Assembly: GCA_964291315.2 (NCBI GenBank) | Contig: OZ219753.1 | Location: 160,001-224,000 of the forward strand | Direction of reading: 5' to 3' | From: Candidatus Poribacteria bacterium | GTDB taxonomy: Bacteria; Poribacteria; WGA-4E; WGA-3G | DNA: 64,000 nt | Shown here: one piece after another, positions 17,143 to 23,396 of the stretch | Layout: every line of letters begins with the position of its first letter | Numbering within the stretch: the first letter of the stretch is position 1 | Notes under the pieces: model-generated | Told to the model about the DNA's origin: nothing | The model's input: only the letters and a program-made list of their open reading frames with translations | Database searches by the model: none | Program-made: the position numbers and the translations under genes

Positions 17143-19029
17143 TTAGCGATGAAATCGGCGTTCCAATTCATCTCGCCCCATCTCAACGATGATAGGACGT
17201 GAGTGTGGACAATTGAAGGGTAGTTTTGCCTCGGATAACTCTTTGAGGAGGTTTATCATCTCTTTCGTATCCAATGTATCTCCTGCTTTAACGGCTGATT
17301 TGCATGCGACGGTTATCAAGGCGTTATCAATCGCTTCCGGGATTTGTACTTCGGTGTATGGTTGTGTCTGAAGTTTGTCGAGTAAATCTGTTACGGTTTG
17401 TGCTGCAACGCGTGTTGGTAATGGTGCCGGAATTGCGCGGATTAAAATAGTATTTCCCCCGAATTCGTCTAAGTCAAAACCGAGTGTTGTAAAAATATCT
17501 CTGTGAATTTTGAGGTTGCTGAGCTGCTCTGGTGTGCTTTCCAAAGTGACAGGTAATAGCAGTCCTTGCATAGGAATACCGCCGGTTTCCATCTGGTTAA
17601 CGAAACGTTCATAAAGCACACGTTCTGCGGCGACGTGCTGGTCGATAAAGAAAATTTTATCGTTCGACTCAACAACAATATAGGTTTGAAAAAGGTTTGT
17701 CTTCAGTTGGACGTTCTCGAAATCAAGTAGGCTGAGGTCTGCGTTTTCAGGGACCTGCTGTGGTGGTTGCACAACAATTTCAGCAGATGCAATTGGGGGT
17801 CGAGCCTCGTCGGTTTTCGGTAATGCCTGACCGGTTTTTGATTCCGAATTCCCACTTTCGGTTTCTATAGGGTTTTCTGGCTGCCCCGTAAATTGTGTCC
17901 GTTGCGTTTCGCTAGTGCCTGGGTGGGTGTTTGATGTACCGCGTGATCTGGAAATCCGTTGTGGTAAATTCATATTGCGGTTTTCAGTCTCTTCTGCAGA
18001 TTGCCTTGGTTCAACGGGGGTTTCGATTTTAGGAATGTACTTCGCTTTGTGGATAGCGTTGCGGAGCATTCGAACGATACCGCTATAAATGGTACGTTCG
18101 TTCCGAAAGCGCACTTCTATTTTGGCCGGGTGTGCGTTGACATCCACCGCTTCTGGTTCTAAGGTTAGAAATAGCAGCGCGACGGGCTGCCGGTCCTTGG
18201 CGATCATCGAATTAAGTGATTCTGTGAGGGCGGCGGCTATGATATGGCTGCGAATTGGGCGCTGATTGAGAAAAAAGAGTTGGTATTCACGGTTCGGCTT
18301 TGTGAATTCCGGTTTTCCGAGTAAGCCGTACATTTTCAAGTCGGGCAATTCTTCTGTGAATTCTATGAGGTTGTTAGCGAATTCTTTGCCGTATATGAGG
18401 CGGATCCGTTCCAAGTGTGAATCGCAGGCGCGGACATCGAGAATGGACCTCTTGTTGTGTTTCAGCGAAAAATGGAGACTCGGGTGGGCAAGAGCTGTCC
18501 ATGTTACCTGTTTGGTAATGTGATTTATTTCTGTAGTGTCGGTTTTCAGGAACTTCAGACGTGCTGGAACGTTGTAAAAGAGATTGTTAACTGACATGTG
18601 GGTGCCGGGAGAGCATCCGCTTTCCTGAACGGATCGAAAAACGCCGCCTTCAACGTTCACCTTTGTTCCGATGAGTGCGCTGGGCGTACGGGTGAGGAGT
18701 TCGAATTGTGAAACTGAGGCGATACTGGCTAAAGCTTCGCCACGGAAACCAAAGGTCTGAATCTGATCAAGATCTTCGATACGGTTGACTTTGCTCGTTG
18801 CGTGGCGTTCTAAGGCGAGGAGTGCGTCCTCGCGTTCCATCCCGAGCCCGTTGTCAGAAACGCGGATGAGGCGTTTCCCGCCGGCGCGAACTTCTACACG
18901 AATCGAGGTGCTTTCGGCATCTACCGCGTTTTCGACGAGTTCCTTGACGACTGAGGCAGGACGCTCAACGACTTCGCCTGCGGCGATCTTATTAGCGACA
19001 TCTGCAGAGAGTATTTTAATTTTGGGCAT
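17143..19029 (-). CDS. mutL: DNA mismatch repair endonuclease MutL
   Basis: IAAGEVVERPASVVKELVEN, GFRGEAL, DQHVAAER, ACKSAVK, CPHSRP. Confidence 0.97.
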   Translation of the reverse strand: MPKIKILSADVANKIAAGEVVERPASVVKELVENAVDAESTSIRVEVRAGGKRLIRVSDNGLGMEREDALLALERHATSKVNRIEDLDQIQTFGFRGEALASIASVSQFELLTRTPSALIGTKVNVEGGVFRSVQESGCSPGTHMSVNNLFYNVPARLKFLKTDTTEINHITKQVTWTALAHPSLHFSLKHNKRSILDVRACDSHLERIRLIYGKEFANNLIEFTEELPDLKMYGLLGKPEFTKPNREYQLFFLNQRPIRSHIIAAALTESLNSMIAKDRQPVALLFLTLEPEAVDVNAHPAKIEVRFRNERTIYSGIVRMLRNAIHKAKYIPKIETPVEPRQSAEETENRNMNLPQRISRSRGTSNTHPGTSETQRTQFTGQPENPIETESGNSESKTGQALPKTDEARPPIASAEIVVQPPQQVPENADLSLLDFENVQLKTNLFQTYIVVESNDKIFFIDQHVAAERVLYERFVNQMETGGIPMQGLLLPVTLESTPEQLSNLKIHRDIFTTLGFDLDEFGGNTILIRAIPAPLPTRVAAQTVTDLLDKLQTQPYTEVQIPEAIDNALITVACKSAVKAGDTLDTKEMINLLKELSEAKLPFNCPHSRPIIVEMGRDELERRFHR

Positions 19030-19300
19030 ATTATTTTAACGATTACTCCTAGGCTACCGTGTCCTTTGTCCTTGAAAGTTTCTAGTTAATGTAATGTGCT
19101 CTTGATAATTATTTGGTTCATCTTTGGATAAAGAGAAGTCTTGCACAGCCTAGCAGGAAATTGTGCCATAGATGCACAGACCGCTAGTTTATGCTACAAG
19201 CCCTACGCCAACCCTAACAGGCTATGCTACGGAAGAACCTACCCAACTTTTTTCAAACTCACGTTATTATAACAACACACTGCTTGCGAACTATTCCCAA

Positions 19301-19329
19301 ATTATAGCACCGTACTCTGCCCCTGTCAA
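19301..19329 (-). promoter_or_regulatory. Consensus sigma70 promoter upstream of mutL
   Basis: TTGACA-17bp-TATAAT with extended -10 TG. Confidence 0.8.
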
Positions 19330-19401
19330 CAGTATTATTTTAATGCATCGCGTTGTTAGTTAAACAAAGTAGATAGAATGGAAAGCGTTAGAGCGGCCAC
19401 G

Positions 19402-22400
19402 TCAATCTCTCAAACCCATCCGATATTTGATGTCGTAGTTGATGATGAAGTCTAATTCTTCGTCCGTGAAGCCGTAGTGTTTTGCGAGGACGCGGTCTAT
19501 TTCGTCTATGATGTGCTTGGATTTTTGAATTTTGAATAACTGCGTTTCAGTGCGTCCAGTTGATTTTTGGCTAACTTCCATTGTACTGTTCTGTTGTAAG
19601 TCTTCCAAATATACCTCTCCAAGTCGAAGGAGGCGAGGATCATTGAGTGCAGACTCAGGGATAGGAAAATTTTGGACATCATATGGATTAAGTGTCCGAC
19701 AATCTGACGTAATAGTATACCACCACCAAAAACTGTTGCTGCTCAGGATAGCGATAGATGGTTTTATCATTTCTTTTTTTGCCAAAGAGAAAGAGGTTTC
19801 ACGTGAGGAATGTCCTATTTTGCCGTTGATTTTGAATGCTGGCGGAAAATTAGTGAACACTTTCCAATATCTTCCACCTGAATTACGATAATAAACACGA
19901 TGTTCACTTTTAGCCATGAATAATTTTAAAACGGTTGGTACTCTCAGGTATTTCTCTAGTAGACCGTTCTCAATTTCTAACCCTAACTTTGGTGCCCAAA
20001 AGGCTGTCCTATGGCGTGGTATCTCTACGTATTTGATGTTGTACATCCGCAAATCTTTGCTGTGTGAATACCACTTCTGATTGTTTGTAGAAAAGGTTCT
20101 ACCTTGTTTTGAAGGGGTTGCGGTGAAAATAGTGAGAGCTCGACTCACTGTATCAAACAATTTACCGGGAGAATCACTATAGTTAGCATACCAGACATTA
20201 CGGTCTTTTTCTAAGAGGTTCTGGATAATTTTCATTCGTTGTGTGGAAACTAATGCAGAAGGAACAATCATACTCAAACAGCCTTGCTGATTTAGCAGAC
20301 CCAAACTGCTGTCGATGCACATTGCATGAATCGCGCGGGTTTCGTAACTAACAAAATTTGTATTTGGTGTATAGTCAATTTTGTTTGATTCAAGGTAAGG
20401 CGGGTTTCCGATGATGACATCAAATCCGCCGTCTTTGAGGATGCTGTAGAAAGCAATGAACCAGTGGAACGGCTTATGCGTGGCAAGCCATTTGTGGTAA
20501 TCTGTGATTACCCCCCCCCGCTTATATTATGTGAAGTGTTCACGCCATACTCACCCGCAAGATAGATGTTCAACTCATCTTCTAAGACACCCAGTCTCTC
20601 CCGCAATGCCTGCTTATCCGCACGCGTCACGACCCCGCCTAACGCCGTCTGTTGCCTGCGGAACGCTTGGAACAACGCATCTACATCCTCCGCCTTCTCC
20701 CGAAGCCGCCGCATCGTGCCGTCAAAGTCCAGCTTGCCCGTCACCGCTCGCTCTACCGCATCATACGTTGAGAACCCGACGAGACTATTCCCCGACTGAA
20801 TGTTAAAGTCGATGTCTGGCAACGGCTCTATCTGCCGCACATCTTCAATCTGTGAGACCATCTTCAGAAAGAGCCGGAGCTTACAGATTTCAACCGCCTC
20901 CGCCATGATGTCCACACCGTAGAGGTTATTTATCACAATAGACTTGAGGATAAAATAGGCTCTGTTCGGATGCTGCTCTATACGCCCGAGCGTCTCTCGG
21001 AAGTCAGCATAGCGCCGGCCGGCACCCGAGTCGTCGTTGAGGAAGGCTTGCATTCGGTCGAGACACGCCTCATAGAGCGGCACGAGGATATTCACGGCAG
21101 CGAAGAGGAACGCTCCCGAGCCACACGTCGGATCCAGGATGCTGATGTGTCTGATCGCCTGCCAAAACGCACGCAGCAGCTCGGGGCCCTCACATCCCGC
21201 GATTACATCCTGTGCGAACTGGCGGACATCTAGATTGTAGGTAATCAGATCGTTGATGCTCCCGATGTCTCCGTTCACCAGCTTCGCACGCAGCGTCTCG
21301 TAGCGTTGCCGTCTCGCAACGACTTCCCGCCATATCTCTGTCGGCAAGGCATACTCGGAAGGTGCAACGGTGTTCCAATCCGTGCGCTTAGAGACATCCG
21401 CAACCCCCGCAGCGATGTGGGGCGGCAACTCTAATTCAGCACCTTTGCTCACAGCAGCGTAGATATAGCGCTCCGGGGCATCTCGCAGCAATTGCCACAC
21501 CGCACCACCCGCCGCAAACGCTATCTCACACGACCGACGCGCCGCATCAAAGAGAAACGGAATAATCGTGTTTTTGCTGATATACTCGGTGATGTCTTCC
21601 TTGGTATAATAAGCACCCATCTGCTTCTGATTGATGTATTTCTCAAAGATATATCCCAGCACATCCGGGTTGATCTCCGTGTCGTTTTTCAACGGGCGAT
21701 CGTCCAAATGCCACTGATACGCATCAAAGAAGCCGAAGAGCTGCTCAAACGCCGCATCCGGGATCTCAATACGCTCCCCGTGATGCGTCTCTATGGCGTG
21801 CTGCTCAAAGATGCCGCCGTTGAGATACGGCACATCCCCGAGAAGCCCGACCACAGCTCTGCCCCGCTCTGCCTCCGGCTTTGCGAACCCTTCAAAGAAC
21901 AGCGGACAGAGAAACGATCTATAGTACCGGTCGCTGCCACTCTTTTGCGTCTCCGTCAACGTGTGCCGCAGATAGTCTGGGTCGCTGTTGAGAAACCCCT
22001 TCTTCTGAATGAAATAGATGAACATCAGCCGATTCAGCAGGATAGAGACATATGCGCGCTGCACCTCGGCATCCGGGATGCCCGTGAGGAAGGATAAGAA
22101 CGCCGTCTGCTCTCGCTTGAAGCGATCGTAAAACTTCTTGGTCACCCGCTCCGCATAGAACGCGCTCCCGACGCGACCTGTCACGTCAGAGAGTGTCAGT
22201 TCGGCTTCTTCTTCAAGACTGAAGGCGATCGGCTCTAACTTTTGTATCAGCGACTCCCCCGATTGCGCCGTGTGATACCTGTGCTCTCGGCAGGCATCCG
22301 GCTTGCCCGGCTCCCTTCTGACCCACTGCCAGAGGTGGGTTGTCCTCTCGGCATCCGTGTAGATGATAATATGCTCATGCGCAGAGCGTGCGACTTGCTG

Positions 22401-22631
22401 CTGGATCTTCCGGCGCAGCGCATAATCGGGGAGTTGTCCATCTGCGTCTGTTGCGTGGCATTCAAAGACGAGCATGCCGCGTTTCTCTGCGACTGCGGAG
22501 AGGTGCCACTCGACCGCATCTACGCGGATCTTCAGCGCCTGTGTGTAGTGATCCCAACCGAGTGCTTGGGTGAAGAGGGCGCTAAAGTTAGCCGCTCTGA
22601 GATAGTCAAGTATCTGTTCTCGATGAAGCAT
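19402..22631 (-). CDS. Eco57I/type IIG-like N6-adenine DNA methyltransferase, frameshifted at a poly-G tract (phase-variable candidate, OFF as assembled)
   Basis: 5' ORF has GGIF, LGYIFE, GAYYT, ILDPTCGSGAFL, LYGVDI and GNSL; the -1 frame from 20511 continues KPFHWF...GGFDVIIGNPPY into the 19402-20322 ORF. Confidence 0.88.
20511..20519 (-). repeat. G9 homopolymer at the frameshift site
   Basis: C9 on the + strand directly next to the premature TAA (20508-20510). Confidence 0.95.
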
Positions 22632-22681: not shown

Positions 22682-22710
22682 ATCTTAAAGCTTTTTTGCA
22701 GAATTGTCAA
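22682..22710 (-). promoter_or_regulatory. Sigma70-type promoter of the methyltransferase gene
   Basis: TTGACA-17bp-TAAGAT. Confidence 0.65.
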
Positions 22711-22874: not shown

Positions 22875-22903
22875 TTGACATGTCGCCAGAAATTGTGTAT
22901 AAT
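22875..22903 (+). promoter_or_regulatory. Consensus sigma70 promoter upstream of nusB
   Basis: TTGACA-17bp-TATAAT. Confidence 0.8.
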
Positions 22904-22976: not shown

Positions 22977-23396
22977 ATGTCCTCTCGTAGACAATCTCGC
23001 ATCACTGCGATGCAAATGTTATATCAGATTCACCTCATCGAAACGCCGGCGAAAGTCGTTATAGAACAGTTTTGCCAGAGCCAGAGCGTATCGGTAGAAC
23101 CTTGTTCCTTCGTAGTGCAACTCGTTGAAGGCACCACTGCATCTCTCGAAACAATTGACGCTTTACTTCAAAAGGTCTCTAAAAACTGGAAACTTCACCG
23201 GATGCCGATCGTAGACCTCTCGATCCTACGATGTGCCACTTATGAGATACTCTATCTCACTGATGTCGATCCAGCTGTCTCGATCAGTGAAGCTGTTGAG
23301 ATTGCCAAGACTTACAGCACGCTAGACTCGCCTAAATTCATCAACGGGGTCTTGGACAATGTCCGAAAAGAGCATCTTGATGCATCGAAGCCTTAA
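22977..23396 (+). CDS. nusB: Transcription antitermination factor NusB
   Basis: RRQSR..AMQMLYQ, WKLHRM..VDLSILR, SEAVEIAK.Y, KFINGVLD. Confidence 0.95.
   Translation: MSSRRQSRITAMQMLYQIHLIETPAKVVIEQFCQSQSVSVEPCSFVVQLVEGTTASLETIDALLQKVSKNWKLHRMPIVDLSILRCATYEILYLTDVDPAVSISEAVEIAKTYSTLDSPKFINGVLDNVRKEHLDASKP

Follow-up and report, generated by a model that had tools for sequence, protein, structure and literature searches.

What does a run of nine guanines do in the middle of a large methylase gene: does it mark a sequencing error, a gene in decay, a site of slippage during expression, or a heritable switch? The question is raised by a locus in a 64,000-nucleotide stretch of a Candidatus Poribacteria genome (hereafter the window). 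Poribacteria are sponge symbionts, and phase-variable methylases have been described chiefly in pathogens, where they occupy a single locus or a few. A preliminary description of the locus had proposed a solitary, poly-G-switched, type IIG-like m6A methyltransferase of probable Poribacteria origin; the best named relatives of the gene are indeed Poribacteria metagenome-assembled genomes (MAGs), and the G9 frameshift is real, as first described. On the minus strand, an open reading frame of 707 aa (20508..22631) encodes an N-terminal domain without a PD-(D/E)xK motif, a helical region and, by sequence, the SAM-binding motif I ILDPTCGSGAF (21108..21140), and its 3' end reads AGC GGG GGG GGG TAA, the G tract (20511..20519; C9 on the plus strand) running directly into the stop. 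The -1 frame from 20511 reads VITDYHKW and continues without interruption over 369 codons until a stop closes it at 19402 (19402..20511), comprising the region of the catalytic motif IV NPPY (20395..20406, by sequence), the target-recognition region (TRD) and a conserved C-terminal end. Upstream of the tract this frame, which there reads FT*YKRGGVITD, has a TAA of its own (20527..20529), confining the shift to the tract region. The 707-aa OFF product lacks motif IV and the TRD, whereas a tract of 10 or 7 is in frame and gives a read-through product of 1076 aa (G10) or 1075 aa (G7); the tract, the two frames with their motifs and the two read-through lengths had been reported before and were recovered unchanged.

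That the two halves constitute one gene follows from a single PADLOC profile, PDLC03628 (1100 positions, labelled type IIG), which is contiguous over both, residues 2-700 of the first half aligning to positions 3-719 and residues 5-366 of the second to 725-1095; the downstream half also matches Eco57I (PF07669, 1.2e-15). Comparison with six paralogues and with the intact genes of relatives delimits the variable TRD (19522..20379, minus strand), which is bracketed by the conserved 5' part and by a conserved 3' end common to the copies (19399..19521, minus strand; 87-97% DNA identity by blastn). The tract itself sits in a loop, which the G10 frame would make 7 residues longer than in most tract-free orthologues, and a short inverted repeat with 7-bp arms and a 3-nt loop (20496..20512) overlaps the tract end. 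A related tract flank accompanies 26 tracts in this genome, whereas 158 other genomes of the order all lack it. Five metagenome matches to the flank were set aside, as their upstream flanks are unlike that of this gene.

Seven copies of the methylase gene are scattered over three contigs of the genome, five with G9 and two with G8, all out of frame. Relative to the other six, the copy in the window is 94-97% identical in the N-terminal half and 36-41% identical in the downstream half, the latter being 65-77% identical to nine intact genes of relatives (1078-1141 aa). No downstream half contains a stop codon (0/7), although one copy (C1:360080) carries a second frameshift, in motif I. In a tree from a quick search (40 rows, the doubly broken copy omitted), six copies form one clade sharing the tract (SH-aLRT 100). 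Across the 15 pairs of N-terminal halves from these six copies, pN/pS is 0.11-0.21 at pS 0.11-0.19, and among three copies with related TRDs pN/pS is about 0.16-0.24. Moreover, strain differences within the TRD of this gene in the contigs of one public sequencing run (X3) are synonymous in 7 of 12 listed cases against 21% expected (p 0.006); 14 differences were counted in two contigs, and taking the 2 unlisted ones as non-synonymous gives a worst case of p 0.016. Both gene halves are shown to be under purifying selection, and the simplest reading of these data is that full-length protein is made some of the time.

Beyond this family, long G/C runs are in excess across the genome (four contigs, 4.4 Mb), with 510 runs at length six, 47 at seven, 45 at eight, 18 at nine and 2 at ten. 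Counting runs inside one long open reading frame (in frame) against runs splitting one gives 328 vs 3 for A/T runs of 7-9, 217 vs 2 for G/C runs of 6-7 and 3 vs 28 for G/C runs of 8-9, the three in-frame cases of the last class all being G/C8; in-frame G8 runs lie at C4:597818 and C4:1183726. Breaks are concentrated at G/C8-9 runs: 28 of the 31 such runs inside or between long open reading frames split a gene, compared with 2 of 219 G/C6-7 runs. All 28 splitting runs lie in methylase genes, belonging to four families, and all 28 genes are OFF in the assembly and would be restored at a length of 7 or 10. Since homopolymers elsewhere are almost all in frame, the assembly handles them well, which argues against an artefact. 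Additional evidence comes from contigs of four public runs (X1-X4) of one study, possibly including the source sample, that were compared over the gene. An allele one base shorter occurs in contigs of X1, X3 and X4, and one three bases longer in X4, in which G8 stands at depth 12.5 and G12 at depth 5.4. The genome and the X1-X4 contigs contain no one-base-longer or G7 allele at a 3% threshold, which hides minor alleles and corresponds in depth to roughly an entire gene copy in X1 and to about 29% of a copy in X2; no contig piece listed across the tract reaches 31 bases beyond it in both directions. These contigs argue against a true G10 and say little about rare ON cells.

The preliminary description had noted the lack of a partner nuclease or helicase in the window and favored, partly on that account, a regulatory over a restrictive role. 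There is no partner within 7 kb of the copy in the window or of five other copies, but an intact PLD-SNF2 gene lies elsewhere in the genome, and the gene, one of seven copies, is not solitary. At 67 of the best 80 of 561 related loci, part or all of a PLD nuclease fused to an SNF2 helicase (about 1130 aa) lies upstream of the methylase, and in 6 of the 13 partner-less loci of this set the sequence upstream is shorter than 1 kb; all 58 full-length partners retain HxK, GSSN and Walker A. When neighbors at the best 80 of 561 loci were clustered, the only frequent ones were this helicase (67) and, less often, a DprA-like gene (36). This genome encodes exactly one close PLD-SNF2 member, intact and 1131 aa long (G000:C4:3027324-3030716), directly upstream of a methylase copy 97% identical to that of the window (C4:3030805) and 2.85 Mb away from it. 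The two-gene layout is present in the family and at one copy here, and is not adjacent for the copy in the window. With seven copies in the genome, a partner at 67 of the best 80 of 561 loci and an intact partner here, the argument from solitude to regulation is not supported: a partner missing from the window does not make the methylase an orphan. The layout of several methylases around one motor also recurs. Family B has 8 copies and one PLD-helicase and family C 7 type III-like copies and one helicase, while the fourth split family has no partner within 7 kb of its 6 copies. Among the fetched copies in multi-copy relatives, one adjacent full helicase occurs both where the methylases are split (G089, with 3 methylase copies, and G117) and where they are intact (G080, G152 and G064).

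The earlier remark that no PD-(D/E)xK motif is present was borne out across 31 aligned methylase N-termini, in which a conserved D...(D/E)xK is absent: position 69 is D in 18, and E86 is followed by H, with no conserved K two residues further on. Being without this motif and accompanied by a separate nuclease gene, the family looks like a predicted methylase-specificity subunit plus separate nuclease-motor. It is not a strict type IIG enzyme for the same reason. The read-through frame does combine a gamma-class m6A methylase with motif I and NPPY and a C-terminal TRD in one chain, as do the intact genes at 70 of the best 80 of 561 related loci; the N-terminal nuclease motif that a type IIG enzyme would carry in the same chain is not seen. 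The N-terminal domain was modeled at pLDDT 77 and gave no Foldseek match at E <= 0.001, and sequence searches against solved structures returned nothing useful. An Atlas match of this domain to MmeI_N at 0.86 is recorded as a lead only. A complex predicted from the C-terminal 270 aa of the helicase and the N-terminal 200 aa of the methylase scored 0.24 against a mark of 0.32 and is counted neither for nor against the pairing. Co-occurrence and complementary domains suggest that the methylase and the distant PLD-SNF2 may act as one restriction complex, also in trans.

Tract variation extends to relatives, here GTDB genomes represented by the best 80 of 561 related loci. Of these 80, 70 are in frame and tract-free at the linker and 4 have an out-of-frame run there (G8, G9, C10 or C11); the remainder comprises 5 incomplete loci and a single tandem pair. 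One relative (G003) harbors a G8 OFF copy together with a paralogue in which the same insertion is an interrupted, in-frame run of 7 nt; another (G132) has a 13-nt G4-A-G8 allele, in frame and contig-limited; and the three copies of G089 are G9 and OFF. A further loop, near residue 535, bears tracts as well: all three copies fetched from G117 are G9 at this second loop, where the ON length would be G8, and L060 is alike, while L104 has an in-frame C23 and L110 an out-of-frame C15. The set of multi-copy relatives overlaps the best-80 set, and the two sets of counts are not additive. The comparison of orthologues proposed earlier thus yields G8 and G9 among the copies and both tracts and in-frame alleles in some relatives, and homologous in-frame alleles are shown, by alignment, to exist there. 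The tree (again without the doubly broken copy) requires 4 tract changes, at least 3 of them forced. Because the G-tract insertions of this genome, G003, G132 and G089 align with each other, separate origins are claimed for the inverted C-tract and for the tracts at the second loop, and for no others. Overall, the coding strand reads G at some tracts and C at others, two loops are affected, and the shift required would be either +1 or -1.

The explanation that we favor, at a probability of roughly 0.55, is that the tract would be a heritable ON/OFF switch operated by replication slippage, and the gene a methylase-specificity subunit serving the single PLD-SNF2 protein in a restriction-like defence. 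The majority of cells would make only the 707-aa fragment, which, without NPPY or TRD, would be unable to methylate; a one-base slip (G9 to G10 here, G8 to G7 in other copies) would give a minority of cells the 1076-aa enzyme, which would mark host sites and guide the nuclease-motor common to the copies to those sites on incoming DNA that lack the mark. The seven copies would then constitute a library of specificities that is OFF by default and distributes phage resistance over the population, with TRDs exchanged by recombination between the conserved flanks. As in SSR phase-variable genes, the frame is set by a homopolymer of at least 7, and lengths differ among copies and relatives, with in-frame alleles among them. 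Either tract orientation, either direction of shift and length differences in the DNA itself favor a mechanism at the DNA level. That this tract splits every one of the seven copies, that 28 of 28 methylases would be restored at 7 or 10 and that the shared-motor layout recurs (families B and C; G089) speaks for the switch, and an all-OFF assembly is compatible with rare ON cells, since a consensus shows the majority allele only. Of the reversible poly-G switch proposed at the outset, slippage is supported by the sequence; neither the genome nor, at the 3% threshold, the contigs show this gene with G7 or G10. A wider reading can be entertained more tentatively, and we consider it possible rather than probable: one nuclease-motor per family might be served in trans by up to 8 scattered specificity genes, with a portable poly-G cassette, inserted in either orientation in four unrelated families, keeping each gene a single base short of ON and 28 anti-phage specificities dormant.

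Four other explanations compete with the favored one to very different degrees. The proposal that the true tracts are G10 (or G7) and were miscalled is largely refuted already and has very little left to recommend it. The four-contig assembly was probably built from long reads, the X1-X4 runs come from one study that may include the source sample, and few control runs of at least 9 lie in ordinary genes; set against this are the in-frame majorities among A/T7-9 and G/C6-7 runs and the three in-frame G/C8 runs, the two-base error from G10 that 22 of the 28 tracts would require, the one-base-longer row that would dominate X1-X4 yet is absent there, and the out-of-frame G8 that also occurs in a relative assembled in 590 contigs (G003). 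Somewhat less remote, and still improbable, is recent inactivation, whereby tracts would have shut off a costly restriction system whose decay is now starting. All copies being OFF, one with its second frameshift, would suit this, as would a genome among the smallest of the genus sample, and the low pN/pS of the TRDs could predate TRD import. However, the clade that shares the tract has since gained pS 0.11-0.19 at a pN/pS of about 0.17, the downstream halves have stayed free of stops, and strains differ by an excess of synonymous changes. An orphan phase-variable methylase, acting mainly as a switch of gene expression (a phasevarion) with no restriction partner, is a little easier to accept but unlikely and, on the present evidence, not supported. 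Its case draws on the missing partner within 7 kb of six copies, the lack of a PD-(D/E)xK motif, the gene's own promoter candidate and the finding that cj0031 switching alters transcripts (PMC4889913), and meets the intact cognate nuclease-helicase in the genome and beside most relatives, swapped TRDs that fit defence, and the description, in the same account, of a 5- to 1000-fold restriction of phage by cj0031, whose sites are only weakly tied to expression (PMC4889913). Gene regulation could still be a side effect of switching.

The main rival, though we consider it distinctly less probable than the favored switch, holds that the tract is fixed out of frame by design and that RNA polymerase slips on it (programmed transcriptional realignment), so that in each cell every copy yields a little full-length enzyme. 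It explains the all-OFF state, the family-specific lengths and the intact mutS and mutL: 28 of 28 genes are OFF, also in G117, where the ON length would be the common G8; both halves are under purifying selection; tract lengths are inherited within families while mismatch repair is intact; and the flank is conserved, with its short inverted repeat. Known bacterial slippage sites are mostly A/T runs. Transcriptional slippage would moreover need -1 on G8, +1 on G9 and -1 on C8 from the same cassette in either orientation; DNA lengths differ between copies and contigs, and relatives have in-frame genomic alleles; and poly-C/G runs in methylase genes have been ascribed to slipped-strand mispairing (PMC3711429). 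Ribosomal -1 frameshifting is less likely than transcriptional slippage, as the G8 copies need +1.

Returning to the favored heritable switch, its rate deserves comment. C. jejuni runs of G8-G11 are reported to switch at 1e-4 to 4e-3 per division (PMC3401435), and at such rates the probability of finding 28 of 28 genes OFF is about 1e-5, assuming no selection and independent loci. The share of G9 differs by family (5/7, 0/8, 1/7 and 0/6; permutation p 0.0016), and this family structure points to slow switching. The all-OFF state, G117 at G9 although G8 is its ON length, and the intact mutS and mutL genes speak against fast switching; together with lengths sorted by family, they suggest that switching is probably slower than in Campylobacter and that ON is selected against most of the time. 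Against the favored reading also stand the 70 of the best 80 of 561 related loci that are in frame and tract-free at the linker, and the copy with a second frameshift in motif I.

By analogy, the gene may work like the switches of cj0031 and of the H. pylori type IIG methylases (PMC4889913, PMC3936762). Cj0031 of Campylobacter jejuni is a type IIG enzyme phase-varied by poly-G (PMC4889913), and it shares with the present gene a poly-G tract flanked by conserved sequence within a large m6A methylase gene of the gamma type, a variable TRD, many tract-free homologues and an interrupted tract that locks the frame (4G-A-4G there, the interrupted 7-nt run of G003 here). Cj0031 is a single fused nuclease-methylase, ON at G9 and OFF at G10 with both states common; in contrast, the present methylase shows no nuclease motif and has a separate PLD-SNF2, and seven dispersed copies are all OFF in a host with mutS and mutL. 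In H. pylori, phase-variable type IIG and type III methylases such as JHP1272 and HP1353-1354 are likewise out of frame at homopolymers in the sequenced genome, and frame correction gave activity in 4 of 7 tested; they belong to other families, each at a single locus, JHP1272 has endonuclease activity of its own when purified, and the available text of that account describes no dispersed near-identical copies sharing one motor (PMC3936762). The two-gene layout is matched by loci in CP083813.1 and CP044495.1, where a type II restriction-modification gene of variable specificity, with an adjacent PLD and SNF helicase gene, is listed as undergoing programmed inversion (PMC9881135, Table 3); there, the variation comes from DNA inversion at a single locus rather than from a homopolymer. 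The type III mod/res system of Mycoplasma agalactiae 5632, with two repeat-switched mod genes, similarly couples a switched methylase-specificity subunit, in more than one gene per strain, to a separate restriction subunit (PMC9465063). Its Mod is reported as beta-class (DPPY) with GA repeats, unlike the gamma order (motif I before NPPY), length of about 1076 aa, PLD-SNF2 partner and three-contig scatter seen here (PMC9465063). Finally, BREX-related type 2 and DISARM class I systems are described as joining an HKD and Swi2/Snf2 helicase effector to an N6 methylase (PMC12839542), resembling the arrangement here, in which a PLD(HKD)-SNF2 fusion would be the effector and an N6 methylase would give protection. 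Profile matches to DrmD, DrmMI and PglX are weak, all NCBIfam matches fall far below cut-off, and no BREX or DISARM cluster genes (BrxC/PglZ, DrmA-C, DUF499 ATPase, DUF3780) recur among the frequent neighbors at the best 80 of 561 loci.

A literature search covering titles and abstract openings, with most subscription journals outside its scope, found no report of phase-variable methylases in Poribacteria, in line with the earlier statement that no described example was known; within the literature covered, it likewise found no functional test of a PLD-SNF2/methylase pair and no methylation or restriction activity for this methylase family. New for this gene are its one partner, encoded far away, the tests for selection and the in-frame alleles that occur naturally in relatives. 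A switch is likely, and it would place seven switchable variants of one system, among 28 switchable methylases, in a lineage that is uncultured, probably associated with sponges and equipped with intact mismatch repair; within each split family, the copies apparently have no more than one motor between them. Should this be correct, phase variation of restriction-modification would extend to an environmental symbiont, as a dispersed, trans-acting way of storing specificities; under the wider reading, single cells could sample rare combinations from a repertoire not tied to one invertible locus. The seven-copy system would also offer a test bed for the widespread PLD-SNF2/methylase pair.

The surroundings of the gene add some detail. 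Insertion boundaries of the locus could not be read from relatives, neither the methylase nor nusB lying within 1.5 kb of mutL in any of 24 examined. The sigma-70-like promoter candidate noted earlier, TTGACA-17-TAAGAT (22682..22710, minus strand), is present and matches at 10 of 12 positions, but such sites are no commoner than in shuffled sequence (6 found vs 4.7 +/- 2.2). The upstream region that carries it is absent from the six other copies, homology by blastn beginning at about 22658. As context, the neighbors are an intact mutL (17143..19029, minus strand; TIGR00585 over cut-off) and a divergent nusB (22977..23396, plus strand).

Besides the family to which the window methylase belongs, three more methylase families are split genome-wide in the Candidatus Poribacteria source genome (for example at C1:165754, C1:318425 and C4:461879, C1 and C4 being two of its contigs), with eight, seven and six copies, respectively. 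They are split at related cassettes with G8/G9 or C8 tracts, and a tract length of 7 or 10 would give read-through in every copy. Within the window family itself, the seventh copy bears a second frameshift, a change from G3 to G2 within motif I (C1:360697), which reflects either real gene damage or a miscalled base.

The methylase complement of this genome is very large, with more than 100 ORFs recovered genome-wide by a motif screen. Approximately 15 of these are intact, related ORFs (1025-1074 aa) in which IIDPFVGTG and NPPY occur; several others, approximately 930-990 aa long, have DPPY. One DPPY methylase-like ORF, of 1054 aa (C4:2870801-2873962), contains an in-frame G8 run at C4:2872878 and is possibly a member of the switch set in the ON state.

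Two orthologues from Limisphaerales carry C runs in a loop near residue 535, namely a C23 run that is in frame (locus L104, position 8640) and a C15 run that is out of frame (locus L110, position 8652). These runs probably form a separate, longer switch in another phylum.

Regarding genomic surroundings, 36 of the best 80 of 561 related loci have a DprA-like gene (PF02481) close to the methylase (e.g., L070:10250-10858, L073:10185-10796 and L084:10152-10862), and such a gene also lies approximately 3 kb downstream of the source-genome copy at C4:2470476. In the window, a dispersed repeat of 50-200 bp, situated between mutL and the methylase gene (19085-19275), has many partial blastn matches throughout the genome and might aid the spread of methylase copies. 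Perfect TTGACA-17-TATAAT sites are located upstream of mutL (19301-19329, minus strand) and of nusB (22875-22903, plus strand).

Approximately 30 G/C8-10 runs occur outside long ORFs of the source genome (e.g., C4:1202798, C4:2059155, C4:692552 and C4:2430290). The flanks of many of them are alike, which suggests a cassette of the leader or promoter type, akin to the intragenic methylase cassette. Elsewhere in this genome, three A7-A8 runs break long ORFs (C4:1570749, C4:1018843 and C4:2194756).
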